Source: Candidatus Vogelbacteria bacterium
GTDB taxonomy: Bacteria; Patescibacteriota; Minisyncoccia; Phycocordibacterales; XYD1-FULL-46-19
DNA: 64,000 bases
Reading direction: 5' to 3'
Assembly: GCA_903878275.1 (NCBI GenBank)
Contig: CAIRHC010000010.1
Span: 1,604 to 65,603 of the forward strand
In this document: positions 1 to 62,445 of the stretch, one piece after another
Position numbering within the stretch: the stretch's first letter is position 1
Layout: every line of letters begins with the position of its first letter
Notes under the pieces: model-generated
What the model saw: the letters and a program-made list of their open reading frames with translations, nothing else
Told to the model about the DNA's origin: nothing
The model's database searches: none
Program-made: the position numbers and the translations under genes

Positions 1-2985
1 TTCCGCCAAAAATGGGGTGACTGGTGCCAAGACTTTAGCAATTTCTAATAAAACAAAACGAGTAACCGCTGAAACATTTTTCTTGTCATTTTCGTCGTCA
101 CTTTTAAAACGATCTCGCGAACGACGTAGATACCAAGTGGAGAGGTCATCAATAAACTCATCGATCGGGCGAAGGGCACGGTCTAGTTCATATTTATCAA
201 AAGATTCGGTCACCTGAATAATAGTTTCGCCAAGCCGGACCAAAATCCACTTGTCTAAAATATTGGAAATTTCCGTCGGTTTAAGTTCGAGATTTTTATT
301 TTCAGCTTCCACATAGGTCTGATAGAAAGAACAAACATTTTGCAAACGCATTATAATTTTCCGCTGAATTTCTGCCACGCCCTTTTCGGAAAAATTTAAA
401 TCTTCTGCCCGCACTACCGGTAAAGACATCAAATAAAAGCGGAGAGCGTCAGCCCCATAACGATCGACGACCAGTGAGAGCTCTGGAAAATTCCGCAAGC
501 TCTTTGACATTTTTTGACCATTTTCTGCAAGAAGAAAGCCATTAACAACCACATTTTTAAACGGACTTTCACCAAAAAGCGCGGTGCCCAGAACAATTAG
601 ACTATAAAACCAACCGCGAGTTTGATCCAAACCTTCGGCGATAAAATCTGCCGGCCAACCTTTCTTCTGATCCGGATCAAAATTATCTTTTTTAAACGGA
701 TAATGATCTTGCGCATAAGGCATCGCACCTGATTCAAACCAGCAGTCAAACACATCTGGAATTCTTTTCATTTCACCACCGCAAGCACAAGCAAAAGTAA
801 CCTGATCAATAAACGGTCGATGCACGTCAAGTTCAAAATCCTGATTGCACGGCAATGGTGAAAAAATTAGTTCACGCGATTCGCCGTTTTTTAATTGACC
901 ATCCCAGTGAATAGTTTTTGATAATTCTCGGGCGGTTTTACCAGCCGAGCCAGCAAACATCATCAAGATTGGAAAACCGTGTGCCACAATCAGAATATTT
1001 TTGTTTTGATATTTTTGTTCCAATTCGTACAACAAACTCATCACGCGTTTTTTAACGTTCGCACCGGTTTCACCATTTTCGTACTGACGATAAATTTTAT
1101 CGTAGATCGAATTTTCTTTTTGGTATTCGCGCCATTCTTTGCCGTCATAAGTGCCAACATTTATTTCGCGCAAACGCTCATCAAAAATTACTTGCTCGTC
1201 AGTCAAACCAAGTTTTTCTTTAACAATCTTCACCGTTTCTTTGGTTCGGCGAAAATCGGAAGAAATTATTAAATCAATTTTTTGCTTGGCAAGCTCTTCC
1301 GCTTCCGCCATTACTTCATTTTCGCCCAAGTCGGTCAAACCATCTTTGGCCAAATCAAGACAATTGACCCGACCTTCGACATTGTTGATCGCCTGTCCGT
1401 GACGCATCGCAATATATTTGTTACCAGTTTTTTTAGATAGACGACGAATATCATCGAGAGAGCCAATTACCTCTTTTTTATCGCAACTAGCACATTTCCA
1501 AACCGGAATCGGCGCACCCCAGTAGCGCGTCCGAGAAATCGCCCAGTCACGCGCGCCTTCGAGCCAATTGCCGAAACGTCCTTCTTTGATATTTTCCGGC
1601 ACCCAATTTGTTTTCAAATTATTCGCCACCAACTTATCTTTAAAATCAGTCACTTTCACAAACCAAGAAGAAGCTGCATAATTTAAAAGTGGCGTGGCAC
1701 AACGCCAACAATGTGGGTAAGAGTGAATTATTTTTTCTTTCGCAAACAACGTACCTTTGCCCGCCAAAAATTTAATTATTTCAATGTCGGCTTGTTGCGG
1801 ATTTTCAATCGGCTTTACTTTTTGTCCAGCAAAATCTTTAACCTCTGGTTTAAATTCACCATTCATTGCCACGTGCTGGATAAACGGCAATTTTTCTTTT
1901 ACACCAAGCGCCATATCGACTTCACCAAATGCCGGTGCAATATGCACAATCCCCGTCCCGCTTTCGGTCGTCACAAAATCGGCTGGGTAAATCTGCCAAC
2001 CACGTTCTTTGTTTTCTATTTTTTCATCATTCAAATAATAATCAAAAACTGGTTTGTATTTTTTACCGACTAGCTCTTGCCCGGAAATCTTTTTTTCTTC
2101 TGTAAAATTATTTTGTTCCATTTTGTTTAAAATCCATGGAACCCTTTCTGTCGCTACAATATATTTACCGCTCTTTAAAGATAATTCTCCATCTTTTATT
2201 CCTCTGCCCAAATCTGTATTATTTTGTAGAATTGAATAACTTATTTCAGGATTGACTGCCAATGCCACATTACCGGGCAAAGTCCACGGCGTCGTCGTCC
2301 ACGCCAAAACAAAAGTTCCCGGTTCGTCAACAAGTTCAAATTTTACCGTCACCGAAATATCCGTAATATCTTTGTAGCCTTGAGTTACTTCAAAATTGGA
2401 TAAGGTCGTCTCGCAACGAGGGCAAAGATGCATTGCTTTGTAACCTTCGTAAACTAAACCCTTGTCGGACAAATTCTTAAAAATCCACCAGACCGTTTCC
2501 GAATAGCTCGGATCCATTGTCCGGTAATCGTCTTCCATATCCACAAAACGTCCGAGTCTTGGCACAATTTTTCGCCAGTCATCAGCATAACGTAAGACAC
2601 TATCTTTGGCTTTTTGGTTGAAATTTTCAACACCGTAATCTTCGATATCTTTTTTGGTTTTTAAACCAAGTTCTTTTTCAATTAAATTTTCCACTGGCAG
2701 ACCGTGACAATCCCAACCCCAACGCCGACGGACATAAAAACCCTGCATCGTTTTGTAGCGAGGAATGACGTCTTTGATCGTGCCAGCGGTCAAATGACCA
2801 TAGTGAGGTAGCCCAGTCGCAAAGGGCGGACCATCATAAAAAGTAAAGGAACCTTTTGTTGATCCACTGATTAGTGACTTTTCTAGCGATTGCTCAAAAA
2901 TCTTATTCTCTTGCCAAAATTTTAGAATTTCTTCCTCGCGCTTAGCAATTTCTGATTTTTGCCCTTCATTTTCTTCAAGCGACAT
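1..2985 (-). CDS. ileS: Isoleucyl-tRNA synthetase, type 2. The N-terminal ~995 aa are present; the C-terminus lies beyond the window start. It carries an in-frame inserted PGAM-like domain.
   Basis: Manual minus-strand translation from ATG at 2985 gives MSLEENEGQKSEIAKREEEILKFWQENKIF... Class-I IleRS motifs are present: PPFATGLPHYGH (HIGH), TTTPWTLPGN (editing domain), YPHCWRCATP, DWAISRTRYWGAPIPVW, DVHRPFID, DVFDCWFESG, GQKMSKS. The ORF is open to position 1. It is absent from the ORF track because it is truncated by the window edge. Confidence 0.93.
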   Translation of the reverse strand, partial: MSLEENEGQKSEIAKREEEILKFWQENKIFEQSLEKSLISGSTKGSFTFYDGPPFATGLPHYGHLTAGTIKDVIPRYKTMQGFYVRRRWGWDCHGLPVENLIEKELGLKTKKDIEDYGVENFNQKAKDSVLRYADDWRKIVPRLGRFVDMEDDYRTMDPSYSETVWWIFKNLSDKGLVYEGYKAMHLCPRCETTLSNFEVTQGYKDITDISVTVKFELVDEPGTFVLAWTTTPWTLPGNVALAVNPEISYSILQNNTDLGRGIKDGELSLKSGKYIVATERVPWILNKMEQNNFTEEKKISGQELVGKKYKPVFDYYLNDEKIENKERGWQIYPADFVTTESGTGIVHIAPAFGEVDMALGVKEKLPFIQHVAMNGEFKPEVKDFAGQKVKPIENPQQADIEIIKFLAGKGTLFAKEKIIHSYPHCWRCATPLLNYAASSWFVKVTDFKDKLVANNLKTNWVPENIKEGRFGNWLEGARDWAISRTRYWGAPIPVWKCASCDKKEVIGSLDDIRRLSKKTGNKYIAMRHGQAINNVEGRVNCLDLAKDGLTDLGENEVMAEAEELAKQKIDLIISSDFRRTKETVKIVKEKLGLTDEQVIFDERLREINVGTYDGKEWREYQKENSIYDKIYRQYENGETGANVKKRVMSLLYELEQKYQNKNILIVAHGFPILMMFAGSAGKTARELSKTIHWDGQLKNGESRELIFSPLPCNQDFELDVHRPFIDQVTFACACGGEMKRIPDVFDCWFESGAMPYAQDHYPFKKDNFDPDQKKGWPADFIAEGLDQTRGWFYSLIVLGTALFGESPFKNVVVNGFLLAENGQKMSKSLRNFPELSLVVDRYGADALRFYLMSLPVVRAEDLNFSEKGVAEIQRKIIMRLQNVCSFYQTYVEAENKNLELKPTEISNILDKWILVRLGETIIQVTESFDKYELDRALRPIDEFIDDLSTWYLRRSRDRFKSDDENDKKNVSAVTRFVLLEIAKVLAPVTPFLAE
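846..1425 (-). other. Histidine phosphatase (phosphoglycerate-mutase-like) domain, ~190 aa, inserted inside IleRS between the IGS..L segment and the DxHRPxID motif
   Basis: Translated insert reads NKYIAMRHGQAINNVEGRVNCLDLAKDG...SDFRRTKETV...ERLREINVGTYDGKEW...ILIVAHGFPILM. The RHG and AHG catalytic His motifs and an SxxRRxxET block are typical of the PGAM/histidine-phosphatase superfamily. The insert is flanked by IleRS WKCASCDKKEVIGSLDDI upstream and SPLPCNQDFELDVHRPFIDQVTFACACGG downstream. Confidence 0.75.
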
Positions 2986-3091: not shown

Positions 3092-3301
3092 ATGATAAAC
3101 AAAGAAGGTTCTGGGTTGTCTTTTGTCGACAGCAATACTGGGCGAATTTTTCTGACTATCTCTCGTTATGATATAAAGGGAACAGCTAATCCGCCGAAGT
3201 ACATAAAAATAACGGATGCTATCGGTCGCCAGCACTACGCAAACGACAACCACGAAGAATATCACGTCTTCGACAAAATCTTAACCAGTAAAGGTTTGTA
3301 A
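3092..3301 (+). CDS. Hypothetical small protein (69 aa)
   Basis: ORF with Shine-Dalgarno AAGGAGAAAAAG ending 5 nt before the ATG. It is immediately followed by a GC-palindrome terminator. No recognisable motif. Confidence 0.5.
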   Translation: MINKEGSGLSFVDSNTGRIFLTISRYDIKGTANPPKYIKITDAIGRQHYANDNHEEYHVFDKILTSKGL

Positions 3302-3318: not shown

Positions 3319-3356
3319 CCCCGCGAGCGCAAGCGCTCGCGGGGCTTTATTTTTGG
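3319..3356 (+). terminator. Rho-independent terminator: 26-nt palindrome CCCCGCGAGCGCAAGCGCTCGCGGGG followed by CTTTATTTTT
   Basis: Perfect 12-bp GC stem plus U-tract directly after the stop of the 3092..3301 ORF. An identical palindrome recurs at 30064-30089. Confidence 0.8.
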
Positions 3357-3619: not shown

Positions 3620-3632
3620 ATTGCAATTTCAT

Positions 3633-3672
3633 CCCACACGAGCGCTTGCGCTCGTGTGGGATTTATTTTAAA
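3633..3672 (+). terminator. Rho-independent terminator CCCACACGAGCGC-TT-GCGCTCGTGTGGG plus ATTTATTTT
   Basis: 13-bp perfect stem plus T-run. It sits between convergent genes: the small ORF on + and argS on -. Confidence 0.75.
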
Positions 3673-8971: not shown

Positions 8972-8977
8972 ATTACC

Positions 8978-9016
8978 GCCCCGACGCGCCCTGCGCGTCG
9001 GGGCGCTTTTCTTTTT
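8978..9016 (+). terminator. Rho-independent terminator GCCCCGACGCGC-CCT-GCGCGTCGGGGC plus GCTTTTCTTTTT
   Basis: Perfect 12-bp stem and U-tract after the folA stop. Confidence 0.8.
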
Positions 9017-13214: not shown

Positions 13215-13682
13215 TTAGCGAATCCCCGCCGGCAAATGTTCTTCTTTTAACATTTGAATTTTTTTCAAATGAAGAACCAAGCTCGCCGTAATTAAGAAAA
13301 ATCCAGCAAAAGACATCAGCGGAATAGTAATAAAACCAAACAAAGCAAACTCCTGAATCGTGCAAGGCAATTGTATCGAACAAACCACTAAATCAGCTGG
13401 GGCGATATGCCAGACCAAAAGATTATGATAAGTCGCCACGACCAAACCCAAAATCGAAAACGGCAAAGCATAGTAATGAATCCAGCGATCTTTTTTCCAG
13501 ATGCCAACCGTCAAAATCAGCACCAGCGGATACATCAAGCCACGCTGAATAATACACAACGAGCAGGGCGGTAAATTCATAAACTGGCTAAAATACAAAC
13601 TACCCAAAACTCCAGCCCAAACCACCGCATAAGCCGAGTAGATAAAACATTTGACCGGCACTTTTTGTAAAAAATTTAGCAT
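13215..13682 (-). CDS. DsbB/BdbC-family disulfide bond formation protein
   Basis: Four-TM protein with PCSLCIIQR (CxxC in the first periplasmic loop), similar to Bacillus BdbC. Start moved to ATG 13682 (MLNFLQ...) to avoid overlapping the divergent gene. Confidence 0.7.
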   Translation of the reverse strand: MLNFLQKVPVKCFIYSAYAVVWAGVLGSLYFSQFMNLPPCSLCIIQRGLMYPLVLILTVGIWKKDRWIHYYALPFSILGLVVATYHNLLVWHIAPADLVVCSIQLPCTIQEFALFGFITIPLMSFAGFFLITASLVLHLKKIQMLKEEHLPAGIR

Positions 13683-15874: not shown

Positions 15875-17485
15875 TTACCAATCTTCTTCGATTAAGCCGA
15901 GTTTAATCAACCGAGCTTTGATGGCACCGTTTTTCCGACCAAAAGTTTTAGCCAAATCATCGACTGGATTGCCATCATTAAATAATTCTTTCAATTTTTC
16001 GTCTTCTTGCTCACTCCACGAGCGATAAGCGTTGGGATAAGTTTCGCGAATTTTGGCGAAACCGTCGCCAGCTTCCCCGCGGGCGCTAGCGCCCGCGGGG
16101 CTTTTTTGGTTTTTTTTCTTTTTTATTTTACTGCCACCACAAATCGTCACAAAATTTTCGTGCATTTTAGCTAATCCTGTTTTGGGAATTTCACCAAAAG
16201 TTTGTTCGGCATCGATCGAATCAGTCCGAAAATCTTGATCTCTCTCCAAAATCACCGGATGAACTTTAAAAGCTTTTTCATTCCAACCAAGCAAATGCAA
16301 ACCGGACAATCTTCTAACTCGCGACAAGGCGACATACCCTTGTCCAAATTCAAACACCGAACCCAAATCAATTATAGCTTCGTCCAAACTTAAACCCTGA
16401 CTTTTGTGAACCGTAATCGCCCAAGCCAACCGCAACGGCAATTGCGAAATCCGTGCCTTAACTTTTCCATTTTCTTCAATCACCCACTCCATCGGTTCAA
16501 CTAAAATTTGTCGCCCATTTCGTGCCCGGACAATAGGCTTTCGTCCAATCTCACCAAAACCCTCCACCACTCCAAGTGTCCCATTAACAAAACCTTCTTT
16601 TTGATTATTTTTGGTAAACATCACAGTTGCTCCAATTTTTAGACTCAATTTTTCTGGCGACAAACAACCTTTTTTAAGTGCCGTAACCAGCGCTTCCGGT
16701 CCATGCTCCATCATAAAAAAATTTTGACTGACTCCGCCCAACTTATTTAAGGTCTCATCGTTCACCGTATCAACATTGAAATTATGAGAAAAAAGTTTTG
16801 GTATATCAGCCGGAATTCTAGCTTTTTCAATTTTTCGAGAAGTTAAATATTCCAAATGTTCTTCGCTAAAATCATTTCGTCGAATCGCCGACAAAACATC
16901 CAAAAAATTTTTATCGTCCTGACGATACTGCTCGGTCAAATAACAAATGATTGGTTGCAACCTTTTCCAAACTGGCGCGTCACAAGCAAACAGAGCTTTC
17001 GGTTCATCCATTAAAGTCGCTTGCATTTCTTCATCCCGATCAATTTTTACAATCGGCGGTAATTGAAAAAAATCACCGACCAAGATAATCTGCATTCCAC
17101 CAAAAGGAGCCGAATCATCTTTGATCTCCCGACAAACAGCATCAACCATCGAAAGAGTGTCAGCGGAAAGCATCGATACCTCATCAATAATTAAAACTTT
17201 TGTTCGACGAATTCTTTTTGACAAATACTCGGTCGTCCCTATTTTATCAAGATCATATTTGGACAGACTTCTTTTTATGCCGATACCACTCCAAGAATGA
17301 ATCGTCATTCCACCAATGTGCGTCGCCGCAATGCCAGTCGAAGCGGTAATGGCAGGTTCGATTCCGCAATCACGCAAATAAGCCACAAACTCGTTGATCG
17401 TATGAGTTTTACCCGAACCAGGCTCACCAGTCAAAAAGACGTTGGCGCCAGTTTTTAAAATATCCAGAGCTTGCTTCTGTGTCAT
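15875..17485 (-). CDS. Pif1/RecD-family SF1B DNA helicase with a C-terminal helix-turn-helix domain
   Basis: Walker A GEPGSGKTH, Walker B LIIDEVSM, QLPPIV, TVHKSQGLSLD, GQGYVALSRV. The C-terminal ~60 aa (YRSWSEQEDEKLKELFNDGNPVDDLAKTFGRKNGAIKARLIKLG) is the HTH tail common in bacterial Pif1. Confidence 0.85.
   Translation of the reverse strand: MTQKQALDILKTGANVFLTGEPGSGKTHTINEFVAYLRDCGIEPAITASTGIAATHIGGMTIHSWSGIGIKRSLSKYDLDKIGTTEYLSKRIRRTKVLIIDEVSMLSADTLSMVDAVCREIKDDSAPFGGMQIILVGDFFQLPPIVKIDRDEEMQATLMDEPKALFACDAPVWKRLQPIICYLTEQYRQDDKNFLDVLSAIRRNDFSEEHLEYLTSRKIEKARIPADIPKLFSHNFNVDTVNDETLNKLGGVSQNFFMMEHGPEALVTALKKGCLSPEKLSLKIGATVMFTKNNQKEGFVNGTLGVVEGFGEIGRKPIVRARNGRQILVEPMEWVIEENGKVKARISQLPLRLAWAITVHKSQGLSLDEAIIDLGSVFEFGQGYVALSRVRRLSGLHLLGWNEKAFKVHPVILERDQDFRTDSIDAEQTFGEIPKTGLAKMHENFVTICGGSKIKKKKNQKSPAGASARGEAGDGFAKIRETYPNAYRSWSEQEDEKLKELFNDGNPVDDLAKTFGRKNGAIKARLIKLGLIEEDW
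16075..16100. repeat. Perfect 26-nt palindrome CCCCGCGGGCGCTAGCGCCCGCGGGG plus T-run, embedded in frame inside the helicase CDS
   Basis: It lies in the linker between the helicase core and the C-terminal HTH, encoding KKNQKSPAGASARGEAGDG. It has the same architecture as the terminator palindromes at 3319 and 30064, with 3 compensatory changes. Confidence 0.8.
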
Positions 17486-47247: not shown

Positions 47248-47844
47248 TTATCGGCGATGGTCGCCGTGCCCCTGCCCACCAACTTGGTGGTTTTGGTGGT
47301 TTCCGCCACCTCCACCATTTTGCCGGTGGTTTTGGCTGGAGCGGTTTTGCGCGTCACGCCGGGCTTGGTCAGCCCGGTTTTGTGCGTCGCGCATTTGCTG
47401 GTCTGCGCGATTTTGGGCGTCGCGGACCATTTGGTCAGCCCGGTTTTGTGCGTCGCGCTGGGCTTGTTCACGACGATTTCGCTCGTCGCGATAAGCTTGT
47501 TCGTGACGAAGCTGTTCGTCACGACGCTGCTGTTCGCAACGCAACTGGTAGTCGCGATCAGGCACTTCCGTGTAAACCGGAACCGGTGTTACAACGACTG
47601 GGTCGCTGTAAACAACTTCCCGCCGAACAACAACCGGTGATGACTGCTGAACAATGACAGGTGTCCGTTCAACAATCACCGGCGGATTAATGATCGCCGA
47701 GGTGATTACCGCAGCTCCCAAAACCCCCAATCCCACACCGACCGCGATGTCGCGGTCTTTATGTCCATGACCAGCTTCTGCACTTGTCGCAAAAACCAGC
47801 GCCAACGCAATAAAAACAACAATGAATAAATTACTCTTCATAAC
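47248..47844 (-). CDS. Secreted low-complexity repeat protein
   Basis: Signal peptide MKSNLFIVVFIALALVFATSAEA. Four tandem RDAQNRADQ-type 11-aa repeats. Gln/Arg-rich. His/Gly-rich C-terminus NGGGGGNHQNHQVGGQGHGDHRR. The DNA is GC-rich with visible tandem repeats. Overlapping track ORFs in other frames are judged spurious. Confidence 0.6.
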   Translation of the reverse strand, partial: VMKSNLFIVVFIALALVFATSAEAGHGHKDRDIAVGVGLGVLGAAVITSAIINPPVIVERTPVIVQQSSPVVVRREVVYSDPVVVTPVPVYTEVPDRDYQLRCEQQRRDEQLRHEQAYRDERNRREQAQRDAQNRADQMVRDAQNRADQQMRDAQNRADQARRDAQNRSSQNHRQNGGGGGNHQNHQVGGQGHGDHRR

Positions 47845-48077
47845 GACCTCTTTTCTGAACCCATGGGGTTCTTGCTTTTCAGTGTTCAGGCCCAATGCCT
47901 TTATCCTCTTGTAGTATAGCAAATTATACCACGTTTGTCAATAGCTAAAAAACCTTTATTTTAAGACTTATTTTCTGGTTTTCCACAAAAAAGCCTTGGC
48001 TAATAAAAATTTTATTTTTACTCGCCCCAGCTGATTTACTACTCACTAATTAATTTTAAATTACGAAACTCTAACGA

Positions 48078-48156
48078 GTGTCATTCCCGCGAAGGCGGGA
48101 ATCCAGACTAGTTCGATAAAACCTGGATTCCCGCCTTCGCGAGAATGACAGAGTGA
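48078..48156. repeat. 27-bp inverted repeat GTCATTC(C/T)CGCGAAGGCGGGAATCCAG around a 17-nt spacer; each arm holds a CCCGC-GAAG-GCGGG hairpin
   Basis: Seen directly. One mismatch between the arms. Part of a 500-bp structure-rich intergenic region upstream of pilB. Confidence 0.7.
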
Positions 48157-48446
48157 AAGCAAGAATGACAATAAAGAAAAGTGAAAATGACCGAAAAACA
48201 CAGAGAGCTAAGTTTTTAAATTTAAAATTTTAATCGCCCCAGTGGAATAGCCAAGCTAAATTTGCTTCGGCAAATTTATTCCACCGGGCGAACTGCTCTG
48301 CGGAGCAGTTCGAGTTACCCACAGTTTTAAATTATTTTTGTTGGCGAAAAAATTTTTAAGTGCTAGGAATATTGTTAGCGGAAATGAAATTTAAAAAATT
48401 CTGAATTGTTGAATTTGTTTTTGTTTTTAAAAAAGGTAAAATTAAA

Positions 48447-50138
48447 TTGATGACAACTTCTCCACTAAATAATGATCCGCAAATCAAAGAACTCTGGCAA
48501 AAAGAGGCGGAAGATTTAGCTCTTACTCTGGCAAAAAGATACCAACTTCCCTATTTAGATATTTCAAAAACCTCAATCAATACCGATGCTTTAAGATTGG
48601 TTCCAGAAAAAGACGCGCTAAAAGCTCAAACTGTCCCATTCAACGTTAACGGAAAAAATGTCAGCATCGCCCTCACCTCTCCCAACCGTCCAGAATCACT
48701 AGCGATTATCGAAGATTTAAAAAATAAAAACTTAATTTTAAAGATTTTTGTTGTGTCGGAGCCGGGTTTTGAAAGCGTCGTCGTTCAATATGCCGACATT
48801 AATAAATCAGTTAAGGTTCGTGCCGGTTTAATTGACATTTCCAACGAAAAAATCGTTGAGTACGTTGAAAAATTCAAAAACATCACCGACATTTACGATG
48901 AGCTAAAAAAAGAAATGGAGCTCTTCGACAAAAAAGGTGGTGTGTCGACAATTCTGGAAATCATTTTGGCTGGTGGTTTGGTGACCGAAGCTTCTGACGT
49001 TCATATCGAGCCAGAAAAAGAACAAATCCGCCTACGTTACCGCCTCGATGGTGTGCTCCAAGATATTTTAGATTTTTCACCGAAAATTTTTCTTCAATTA
49101 ATCGCGCGCTTGAAACTAGTATCGGGAATGAAGATAAACATCAAGCAAATGTCCCAGGACGGACGTTTCAGTATTGAGTACGGCAACGAAGAAATTGAAA
49201 TCCGCTCATCGGTAATTCCTAGCGCTTACGGCGAATCAGTCGTGATGCGTATTTTGAATCCCAAGACAATCAATATGACCTTTGGTAAACTTGGTATTGA
49301 AAAAGAATTGTACAAAGTCTTTGATCGAGAAATTCACAAGCCAAACGGCATGATTTTACTTACTGGACCGACCGGTTCCGGTAAAACAACAACACTTTAT
49401 TCTTTCTTGCGTGAAATAAATTCGCCAGAAAGTAAGATTATTACCATCGAAGATCCCATTGAATATCATCTCGAAGGCATCAACCAAACTCAAGTCAACC
49501 GTAAAAAAGGTTACACTTTCTTGTCTGGTCTTCGCAGTGGTTTACGCCAAGACCCAGACATTATTCTAATTGGAGAAATCCGCGATTCCGAAACCGCCAA
49601 AATTGCCACCCAATCTTCTTTGACTGGACACTTGGTTTTTTCTTCGCTTCACACCAACAATGCCCAAGGTGCCATTCCCCGCTTAATCGACCTTGGTGTC
49701 AACGCCAAAATTATCACCTCGGCGTTGACTCTTTCTATCGCCCAACGTCTTCTTCGTAAATTATGTGAGTTTTGTAAAGAACCATATGATCCAGTAGAAA
49801 GTGAGAAAAAAATGATTGAAGATGTTTTAGCCGCTGCTCGCAAAAAAAGACCAGATTTGGTACCTGAAAGTTGGGACAAGGTTTACAAATCTGTCGGTTG
49901 CGACAAGTGCCACAAAACTGGTTACAAAGGACGAGAAGGTGTCTTTGAAGCTATTTATATGGACGACGCCGTAGCGGCCGCTGCCATCAAGAATCCGAGC
50001 GAGAAAGATATCAAGATTGCCGCCCTTCCACAAAACATTATGGATATGCGCCAAGACGGAATAATTAAAGTCGTTAAAGGTATTACCACAATGTATGAGC
50101 TTGGAAGAATTATCGACCTGTACGAAGAAATTATTTGA
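48447..50138 (+). CDS. pilB: Type IV pilus assembly/extension ATPase PilB (GspE family)
   Basis: Walker A LTGPTGSGKTTT, Asp box, His box SLHTNNAQGAIPRL, tetracysteine CEFC...CDKC zinc motif. Confidence 0.93.
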   Translation: MMTTSPLNNDPQIKELWQKEAEDLALTLAKRYQLPYLDISKTSINTDALRLVPEKDALKAQTVPFNVNGKNVSIALTSPNRPESLAIIEDLKNKNLILKIFVVSEPGFESVVVQYADINKSVKVRAGLIDISNEKIVEYVEKFKNITDIYDELKKEMELFDKKGGVSTILEIILAGGLVTEASDVHIEPEKEQIRLRYRLDGVLQDILDFSPKIFLQLIARLKLVSGMKINIKQMSQDGRFSIEYGNEEIEIRSSVIPSAYGESVVMRILNPKTINMTFGKLGIEKELYKVFDREIHKPNGMILLTGPTGSGKTTTLYSFLREINSPESKIITIEDPIEYHLEGINQTQVNRKKGYTFLSGLRSGLRQDPDIILIGEIRDSETAKIATQSSLTGHLVFSSLHTNNAQGAIPRLIDLGVNAKIITSALTLSIAQRLLRKLCEFCKEPYDPVESEKKMIEDVLAAARKKRPDLVPESWDKVYKSVGCDKCHKTGYKGREGVFEAIYMDDAVAAAAIKNPSEKDIKIAALPQNIMDMRQDGIIKVVKGITTMYELGRIIDLYEEII

Positions 50139-54215: not shown

Positions 54216-54266
54216 AAAAACAGCCCGGATTTTTGCTAAGCAAAAATCCGGGCTGTTTTTGTTTTC
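54216..54266. terminator. Bidirectional terminator with a 20-bp stem AAAACAGCCCGGATTTTTGC-TAA-GCAAAAATCCGGGCTGTTTT
   Basis: Very long perfect hairpin with flanking A/T runs immediately after the tyrS stop. Confidence 0.85.
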
Positions 54267-62390: not shown

Positions 62391-62445
62391 AAAATACCGG
62401 TCGGATTTCACACTTGTGAAATCCGACCGGTATTTTTTTTTGATT
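62391..62445. terminator. Bidirectional terminator with a 23-bp stem AAAAATACCGGTCGGATTTCACA-CTTG-TGAAATCCGACCGGTATTTTT
   Basis: Long perfect hairpin plus T9 after yidC. Confidence 0.85.

Follow-up and report, generated by a model that had tools for sequence, protein, structure and literature searches.

A tags-outside dimer of the NTS/SRM repeat in the spacer upstream of pilB in a Candidatus Vogelbacteria genome

The NTS/SRM repeats are short hairpin-forming DNA sequences that serve as targets of a family of small nucleases. In the available portions of their description (Chenal et al., 2025, Nat Commun, PMC11893778), the 28-nt oriented form of the repeat is termed NTS (CGTCATTCCCGCGMAVGCGGGAATCYRG) and the degenerate form SRM. 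SsnA of Neisseria is a 94-amino-acid single-domain GIY-YIG nuclease that binds and cuts the hairpin, an 8-bp stem with a 4-nt loop recognised by its sequence and shape, only as single-stranded DNA (ssDNA); the double-stranded DNA and RNA forms of the repeat are not substrates. The nick falls a few nucleotides 5' of the head, and orientation is set by the GTC head together with the C that follows the stem. In N. meningitidis, SsnA reduces transformation by DNA that bears NTS. SRMs flank ssnA homologues across bacteria, with 71% of the ssn homologues having SRMs nearby, and specific binding with upstream cleavage of ssDNA has been demonstrated with homologues from Neisseria, N. elongata, N. wadsworthii and Wolbachia (PMC11893778). 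Here we describe a dimer of this repeat in a 64,000-nt stretch (the window) of a Candidatus Vogelbacteria genome (contig CAIRHC010000010.1), where it lies upstream of pilB, the gene for a type IV pilus assembly ATPase.

The same repeat has also been described as one of the REP sequences. In the available portions of Di Nocera et al. (2013; PMC3733652), CGTC-1 REPs carry a terminal tag (CGTC, or TGTC or CCTC), have a stem of 8 bp with A-T pairs at its first two positions and a loop of 4 nt, end in a short CCA tail and occur mainly as homodimers with the tags outside (HH). The family takes in Neisseria dRS3 and Rickettsia RPE-6. CGTC repeats are reported there from five phyla, mostly from Alphaproteobacteria, at tens to thousands of copies per genome, and no dedicated transposase was found for them. 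Bertels and Rainey described a Neisseria REPIN, ATTCCCGCGCAGGCGGGAATC, which is present in 241 copies in N. meningitidis and is tied to Group 2 RAYT; they regard REPINs as lineage-specific and vertically inherited. A cassette of the type SRM-ssn-SRM has the look of a mobile unit, either selfish or domesticated, and SRM dimers that lack the gene would be its non-autonomous, REPIN-like version.

The inverted repeat at 48079-48150 of the window is a tags-outside (HH) homodimer of the NTS/SRM repeat (CGTC-1 REP, Neisseria dRS3). It stands in the 607-bp gap (47843-48449) between pilB and a small divergent gene on the minus strand. An earlier sequence-based annotation of the region (the original prediction) had reported a 27-bp inverted repeat with a hairpin in each arm; the repeat is present, and its arms are in fact 28 nt long (48079-48106 and 48123-48150), complementary at 27/28 positions and separated by 16 nt. 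The arm reads TGTC, ATTCCCGC, GAAG, GCGGGAAT and CCA in turn. The hairpin inside each arm is ATTCCCGC-GAAG-GCGGGAAT, with one T.G position in the right arm (ATTCTCGC). The left arm agrees with the NTS consensus CGTCATTCCCGCGMAVGCGGGAATCYRG at 27/28 positions and the right arm at 26/28. The SRM pattern HGTCWYN(0-2)YYVSBRHN(0-5)WNVSBRGN(0-2)RNCYNB fits both arms, which are its only two matches in the window (0.05 in Markov shuffles), and ATTCCCN8GGGAAT, with at most one mismatch, is matched twice in the 64 kb against 0.16 expected. Folded as ssDNA, the single arms reach -9.8 and -6.8 kcal/mol, both with the TGTC head and the 3' C, and the dimer reaches -32.8 / -34.6 kcal/mol (z = -10.4 / -11.7), its two inverted REPs lying within the ~130 bp that define such a pair. 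The TGTC tag variant, the 8-bp stem opening with AT, the 4-nt loop, the CCA tail and the HH arrangement are those of CGTC-1 REPs. We consider it highly probable that the dimer is a DNA-level repeat and that the gap consists of two conserved divergent promoters separated by ~370 bp of fast-evolving palindromic DNA.

The repeat family is a known one; what is new is its occurrence in a lineage of the candidate phyla radiation (CPR), Candidatus Vogelbacteria, as the available portions of Chenal et al. (2025; PMC11893778) hold no mention of Patescibacteria for NTS/SRM. The locus resembles the described NTS/SRM in its consensus and pattern matches, in a hairpin of 8 bp and 4 nt with an oriented GTC head and a C behind the stem, in its intergenic position and in the inverted pairing, and an identical arm flanks ssn genes in other genomes and in viral contigs. 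It differs from them, apart from its host, in the TGTC tag in place of CGTC and in having one dimer and no ssn in the window, against hundreds of copies in Neisseria, Rickettsia and Wolbachia. The likeness to CGTC-1 REPs extends over tag variant, stem length, AT-first stem, loop, tail and HH homodimer, but these 64 kb, from a genome that is small and AT-rich, contain one dimer only, in contrast to the tens to thousands of copies per genome reported for that family. The features in and around the gap are collected in Table 1.

Table 1. Coordinates, in the window, of the features in and around the gap upstream of pilB
Feature	Position	Strand	Details
Small minus-strand gene	ATG at 47842	-	Signal-peptide-like N-terminus, read as a secreted protein; without Pfam family
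Promoter-like site of the divergent minus-strand gene	47913..47941	-	TTGACA-17-TGnTATACT; 11/12 match, with TG; left edge of the variable spacer
Direct-repeat copy 1	48006..48030	+	25 nt, ends in TCGCCCCAG; 80% identity to 48218-48242
Left SRM/NTS arm	48079..48106	+	TGTCATTCCCGCGAAGGCGGGAATCCAG; TGTC tag, 8-bp stem, GAAG loop, CCA tail
Dimer spacer	48107..48122		ACTAGTTCGATAAAAC; 16 nt; a Patescibacteria copy (L075) also has ACTAGTT after the arm
Right SRM/NTS arm	48123..48150	-	TGTCATTCTCGCGAAGGCGGGAATCCAG (minus-strand reading); one stem mismatch
Putative truncated SRM head	48159..48170	-	TGTCATTCTTGC (minus-strand reading); second AATGAC; 20 nt upstream of the right arm, in the arm's orientation
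Putative truncated SRM head, more decayed	48183..48194	-	TCGGTCATTTTC (minus-strand reading); third AATGAC; 42 nt upstream of the right arm
Hairpin 2, composite	48236..48289		Outer stem GCCC + GTGGAATA closing a branched/alternative interior that includes a UUCG-capped stem
Hairpin 3 (UGCG)	48290..48311		GAACTGCTC-TGCG-GAGCAGTTC, 9-bp stem; unique to this genome; no T-run after it
Conserved box	48313..48322	+	AGTTACCCAC (ACTTATCCAC in more distant relatives); A[CG]TTA[TC]CCAC; upstream of the pilB core promoter
Inferred pilB core promoter	48340..48369	+	TTGGCG (-35-like), 17 nt, TAGGAA preceded by TGc (TGCTAGGAAT, extended -10)
Shine-Dalgarno region	48435-48442	+	GGTAAAAT; common to 6/6 genomes, before the ATG
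pilB / GspE-type type IV pilus assembly ATPase	48450..50138	+	Pfam T2SSE E = 1e-114 and MshEN domain

Six genomes spanning 67-100% PilB identity were compared for the pilB promoter: the window, two relatives of the 82-83% identity class (L121 and L131) and three at 67-70% (L134, L136 and L139). L121, a contig from a metagenome, extends 553 bp upstream of pilB, and L131 is Candidatus Vogelbacteria GCA_026395015.1, in which the gap measures 482 bp and the order PolA-TsaE-small open reading frame (ORF)-PilB-RuvB is the same as in the window. In a three-way alignment with these two, conservation of the gap is limited to its two ends. The pilB-proximal block at 48313-48380 is 90% identical to L131 and 88% to L121, and the central stretch (47943-48312) 41% and 38%, respectively. 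The promoter block of the minus-strand gene (TATCCTCTTRTAGTATAGCAAATTAT...TTTGTCAA) is kept in L131 (65% identity) and has equivalents in L134 and L136; the L121 sequence stops short of it. On the pilB side, TGCTAG[GT]AAT follows the conserved box after 20-38 nt, with TTGnnn 17-18 nt upstream of TAG[GT]AA, in 6/6 genomes. The pilB promoter architecture of this CPR clade becomes readable from these elements, as an A[CG]TTA[TC]CCAC box and then TTGnnn-17-TGcTAGKAAT, and a regulator of pilB could bind at the box.

Between the two promoters little is shared. Each of the close relatives has its own, different strong palindromes in the spacer. In L134, L136 and L139 the gaps are 68-218 bp and contain no SRM and none of the hairpins, and the distance from the -35 element of the minus-strand gene to the conserved box is 29-40 bp in L134 and L136, compared with 371 bp in the window. 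L131 has one SRM arm in the corresponding position, which matches the right arm at 24/28 nt and has a similar left flank; this suggests that an SRM was present in the common ancestor with this Candidatus Vogelbacteria relative; no SRM occurs in L121. The spacer recalls the Neisseria NIMEs and the enterobacterial BIMEs, intergenic mosaics of REP-type hairpins, other palindromes and partial repeats in which close relatives differ, the genes and promoters on either side being constant. Unlike these, it is much smaller, with one dimer and two or three hairpins, and it lies between divergent promoters and not downstream of genes.

The original prediction took the structures for a functional RNA: a leader or riboregulator of pilB, or an independent small RNA. 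Read as a cis-acting leader, the hairpins would be transcribed from a far-upstream start and would control elongation, stability or translation. The region does fold far beyond its shuffles (whole-region z = -7.8 on the plus strand and -9.0 on the minus strand); the dimer is the most stable 90-nt fold of the 64 kb (-53.5 kcal/mol, against a mean of -13.7 +/- 6.3), and hairpins 2 and 3 jointly rank fifth. One of the hairpins allows a C(UUCG)G tetraloop, and hairpin 2 shows compensatory changes in one relative. However, the two strands fold equally well, as is expected of DNA palindromes, so that no transcribed strand is indicated. Rfam, at gathering thresholds, returned nothing from the window but 8 tRNAs, and a permissive scan of the region gave only generic long-hairpin matches to microRNA models (for example, 30 bits against a gathering threshold of 211) and a weak, below-threshold match to the Coxiella small RNA CbSR3 (E = 2.5, 13 bits against 101). 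Since the conserved promoter-like elements lie at 48340-48369, all of the hairpins would stand upstream of the predicted pilB promoter. Relatives of 82-83% identity either lack the dimer, the AATGAC copies and hairpin 3 or differ in them, and in those of 67-70% all of the structures are missing, although the promoter box is retained along with the -10 element and the Shine-Dalgarno sequence; in the comparative alignment every structure but the hairpin at 48236-48289 lacks conservation, and the UUCG loop of that hairpin is not conserved. The RNA form of the repeat is, moreover, not bound by SsnA, according to the available portions of Chenal et al. (2025; PMC11893778). On this evidence a pilB leader is very improbable. 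Setting it aside removes a false lead, as REP/SRM dimers mimic 'tetraloop-rich structured RNAs' in genome scans.

The distribution of the arm is that of a widely dispersed repeat. The 27-nt arm GTCATTCCCGCGAAGGCGGGAATCCAG has an exact match in at least 120 stretches of GTDB species-representative genomes. Among the matches listed, the hosts include Alpha-, Beta- and Gammaproteobacteria (Pseudomonadota), Rickettsia, Planctomycetota, Dehalococcoidia (Chloroflexota), Nitrospirota, Gemmatimonadota, Desulfobacterota, Campylobacterota, Leptospiraceae (Spirochaetota), Acidimicrobiales (Actinomycetota), Omnitrophota and five metagenome-assembled genomes (MAGs) of Patescibacteria. The exact 27-mer also occurs in 74 IMG/VR contigs predicted to be viral, whether true viruses or prophage-adjacent host DNA. 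It is found in 13 plasmid records, chiefly large replicons of the Azospirillum/Cupriavidus type together with two mislabelled Neisseria chromosomes, and in just one isolated phage genome. The anatomy common to the other genomes is [GTCATT...CCAG], a spacer of 16 to about 200 nt and [CTGG...AATGAC]. Flanks and spacers of these dimers are unrelated to one another, and no consistent direct duplication was found around them; several have inverted flanks instead. The outer four stem pairs are intact in 228/250 arms of other genomes, in 14 paired stem types (ATCC/GGAT, ACCC/GGGT, ACTC/GAGT, GTTC/GAAC and others). Of the 250 arms, 149 have C and 93 have T as the tag base, and 222 carry a CCA tail. 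All Patescibacteria copies seen (L039, L045, L056, L067, L075, L131 and the window) have the TGTC and not the CGTC tag, which may mark a CPR-associated subfamily.

The genes that adjoin the arm elsewhere belong to the nuclease family. Among the matches listed, Ssn-type GIY-YIG ORFs adjoin exact arms at 10 loci, four in genomes (L047, L049, L089 and L095) and six in IMG/VR contigs (L151, L160, L176, L184, L191 and L212); in L095 the gene stands between two inverted arms, and in L212 it is likewise flanked by inverted arms. The Ssn-type gene of L089, at 3134-3277 of a Leptospiraceae MAG, has an in-frame stop (…FTKKY*VKDLV…) and may be a decaying copy. No transposase was seen adjoining the listed loci besides the Ssn-type GIY-YIG genes. 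The exact Neisseria-type arm is now placed in at least six Patescibacteria lineages, which widens its host range, and the 74 predicted viral contigs, six of them with an adjacent ssn, suggest a route of cross-phylum spread. Arm identity across phyla and the viral copies are awkward for strict vertical inheritance of such repeats.

These data also bear on the origin of the inverted repeat. The original prediction offered a decayed MITE, a miniature inverted-repeat transposable element, as a fallback; the direction, a small mobile element, was right, and the element itself is an essentially intact NTS/SRM dimer and not a terminus derived from an insertion sequence (IS). A related possibility is a REPIN mobilised by RAYT, an IS200/IS605-like tyrosine transposase. 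The dimer shares with REPINs two inverted REPs with a short spacer that make one long hairpin, and the near-identical Neisseria ATTCCCGCGCAGGCGGGAATC, which differs from the arm core only in the loop, is treated as a Group 2 RAYT REPIN by Bertels and Rainey. Against this, tblastn with E. coli RayT detected no RAYT in the window (best E = 0.5), nor in any of the 194 loci that bear the arm, a single query being weak for distant RAYT groups. Ssn-type genes adjoin 10 of the loci; the arm, unlike a REPIN, is identical across many phyla and viral contigs. There is neither a target-site duplication nor an IS-like terminal sequence. The lack of a dedicated transposase for CGTC REPs (PMC3733652) and the 71% of ssn homologues with nearby SRMs (PMC11893778), both as given in the available portions of these reports, point the same way. 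An IS-derived remnant or a RAYT-mobilised REPIN is, in our view, quite unlikely.

Cells of the Patescibacteria, or CPR, are thought to depend on type IV pilus-driven DNA uptake. A link of SRMs to pilus or competence genes in CPR was considered and rejected: judged by eye, the neighbours of the five other Patescibacteria copies resemble genes for a sliding clamp, a hydrolase, glycosyltransferases, a RecO-like protein and a small protein of the ribosome, none of them a pilus gene. Because the SRMs of these five MAGs adjoin unrelated genes, the adjacency to pilB looks coincidental.

The dimer also accounts for motifs that had been assigned to a regulator. AATGAC occurs at 48144, 48164 and 48186, the only cluster of three within 50 nt among the 23 plus-strand copies in the window. 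The cluster had been recognised correctly, with the second site placed at 48166 and the spacings in reverse; they are 20 nt and then 22 nt. The original prediction took the helical phasing as typical of arrays of regulator-binding sites. A phased array of transcription-factor sites for pilB or the divergent gene has in its favour the same-strand spacing of about two helical turns, the uniqueness of the cluster in the window and its position in a divergent promoter region. The copies are instead pieces of the repeat itself. The first is the terminal head of the right arm, and the 12-mer at the second site (GCAAGAATGACA) shares 11/12 nt with the arm end (GCGAGAATGACA), so that the unit is the repeat head and not the 6-mer. 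Read in the orientation of the arm, the two extra sites run GTCATTCT... and GTCATTTT..., and they are probably truncated duplicates of the head. Tandem Repeats Finder reported no tandem repeat in this stretch. Same-orientation GTC[AG]T[TC]C occurs within 60 nt upstream in 16/140 arms of other genomes, against about 0.5 expected, and clearly truncated heads lie 19-27 nt upstream of arms in L018, L035, L048, L078, L107 and L110. As truncated heads recur in unrelated genomes, the phasing looks like a property of the repeat family and not a regulator array. In addition, the only AATGAC of L131 in this context is the one that closes its single arm, L121 has neither SRM nor array, and the array stands 150-170 bp from the conserved pilB box. 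A transcription-factor array is therefore hardly plausible.

Counting L011 and L120 as well, same-orientation truncated heads (GTCATTC..., without a palindrome) lie 19-43 nt upstream of full arms, and short arrays of them, with a period of 20-23 nt, occur in L110 and the window. The available portions of Chenal et al. (2025) and Di Nocera et al. (2013) contain no description of such heads upstream of arms. They may be scars of nicking and repair, or of repeat multiplication, and the pattern could bear on how these repeats multiply.

Hairpin 2 is the structure for which the strongest case for a separate function can be made. The UUCG-capped hairpin of the original prediction is real (48236-48289), and its outer stem (GUGGAAUA/UAUUCCAC + GCCC/GGGC) is present in the minimum free energy (MFE) fold; the UUCG stem is only an alternative to that fold, in which GCCAAGC pairs with GCUU.GGC, and its base overlaps the outer stem by 2 nt. 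The UGCG hairpin is also real, at 48290-48311 with a 9-bp stem and not at 48286-48308 with 7 bp; it aligns with gaps or non-matching sequence in L131 and L121. Jointly the two fold at -41.8 kcal/mol (z = -6.1). Hairpin 2, alone or with hairpin 3, might be a lineage-specific structured RNA, insulator or terminator element unrelated to the dimer. It abuts the conserved promoter block, it is single-copy and so not obviously a dispersed repeat, and an orthologue lies at the homologous position in L131-L133 alone, with the ends CCCAGT...ACCGGG, the position of an A.C mismatch and a branched interior in common. RNAalifold on the two sequences (n = 2) gave 17 pairs, of which up to four are changed on both sides, two of them in the 11-bp outer stem, and none is broken; MAFFT misaligns the inner stem. 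As a dispersed repeat hairpin 2 was discarded: scans for its pattern and its stem, over the window and 143 loci, matched only the orthologous site in L131-L133.

Other observations speak against a separate function. The comparison holds two sequences only, the L131 version folds weakly (z = -1.9), its loop is CUAAAG in place of UUCG, and the equally close L121 has a different, simple palindrome there. Hairpin 2 has no T-run and no promoter conserved for it, and processes at the DNA level can keep the complementarity of a palindrome without any RNA function. An RNA, insulator or terminator element at this site is accordingly unlikely, and an independent function of hairpin 2 of any sort is doubtful to the same degree. 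As terminators the hairpins were rejected: they lack a T-run and none was called terminator-like, whereas the terminators of this genome, which supply the other top-ranked folds of the window, are long perfect GC-rich stems followed by T-runs.

Several observations weigh against our reading of the dimer as a DNA-level repeat in a fast-evolving spacer. The right arm is 86% conserved in L131 and its flanks about 40%, which implies selection or homogenisation, and the compensatory changes of hairpin 2 fit a selected structure and are unexplained if the hairpins are junk palindromes. The dimer is the only SRM copy in the 64-kb window and may be an orphan relic that has no partner in this genome; tblastn with two Ssn-type proteins gave no match to an ssn gene (cd10448 type) in the window. 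The search for a target-site duplication found only GAG at both ends, a 1-in-64 chance, and no empty site for the dimer was found in the relatives compared. The pilB promoter, and with it the transcription start, which likely lies near 48376, are placed by conservation alone. To our knowledge, nobody has so far demonstrated mobility of an SRM dimer.

A simple scheme would join these features. Each arm, once single-stranded, would fold into the 8-bp/4-nt hairpin, which Ssn would recognise by sequence and shape before nicking the strand a few nucleotides 5' of the head. The dimer at this locus would be a DNA-level passenger, at most a substrate of an Ssn encoded elsewhere in the genome, and the neighbouring hairpins would be additional palindromes specific to the lineage, in a spacer that tolerates insertions and lies upstream of the pilB promoter. 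The dimer appears to have no role in pilB expression. A cognate Ssn may be presumed in this genome, as may any current activity. There is a small chance that the dimer is a working Ssn partner in a CPR cell, or that the hairpin at 48236-48289 is a new lineage-specific structured RNA. Were the former true, the Ssn/SRM restriction of single-stranded transforming DNA, so far shown only in Neisseria, would operate in CPR, and Ssn nicking followed by repair could have left the arrays of truncated heads as scars, which would show how the repeat propagates.

The remainder of the spacer contains smaller repeats. The predicted direct repeat TCGCCCCAG is present at 48022-48030 and 48234-48242, its second copy beginning at 48234, within a longer 25-nt repeat of 80% identity (Table 1). 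The 12-mer CCCAGCTGATTT occurs at 48026-48037 (+) of the window and inverted in the homologous L131 spacer at 2673-2684 (-), and a segment rich in TTACTAC stands to the left of the SRM in the window but to its right in L131; both arrangements point to rearrangement or inversion within the spacer. The 12-mer recurs at 13390-13401 (-) of the window. The 17-mer TCGCCCCAGCTGATTTA at 13389-13405, which lies in an ORF and includes CCCAGCTGATTT, was considered as a further copy and, its flanks being dissimilar, is treated as probably a chance match. Elsewhere in the window no repeated modules of the RS type turned up. Degenerate (A)CTTACTAC / TTACTAC repeats occur in the pilB-upstream spacers of the three closest relatives (L121 395-430, L131 2815-2850 and the window 48034-48052).

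Beyond the gap, PolA and TsaE are encoded farther upstream and RuvB and YebC farther downstream. The G+C content of the window is ~39%, and among named PilB homologues the closest come from Candidatus Vogelbacteria and Paceibacterota. Canonical terminators lie at 3319-3345, 3631-3662, 8977-9005, 16075-16100, 54220-54262 and 62395-62435, several of them bidirectional-looking with A-runs before the stem. The coding region of the small minus-strand gene (47251-47565) is among the strongest folds of the window (~-47 kcal/mol per 90 nt) and is internally repetitive, with GC-rich inverted segments such as ttcgtgacgaagctgttcgtcacgac.

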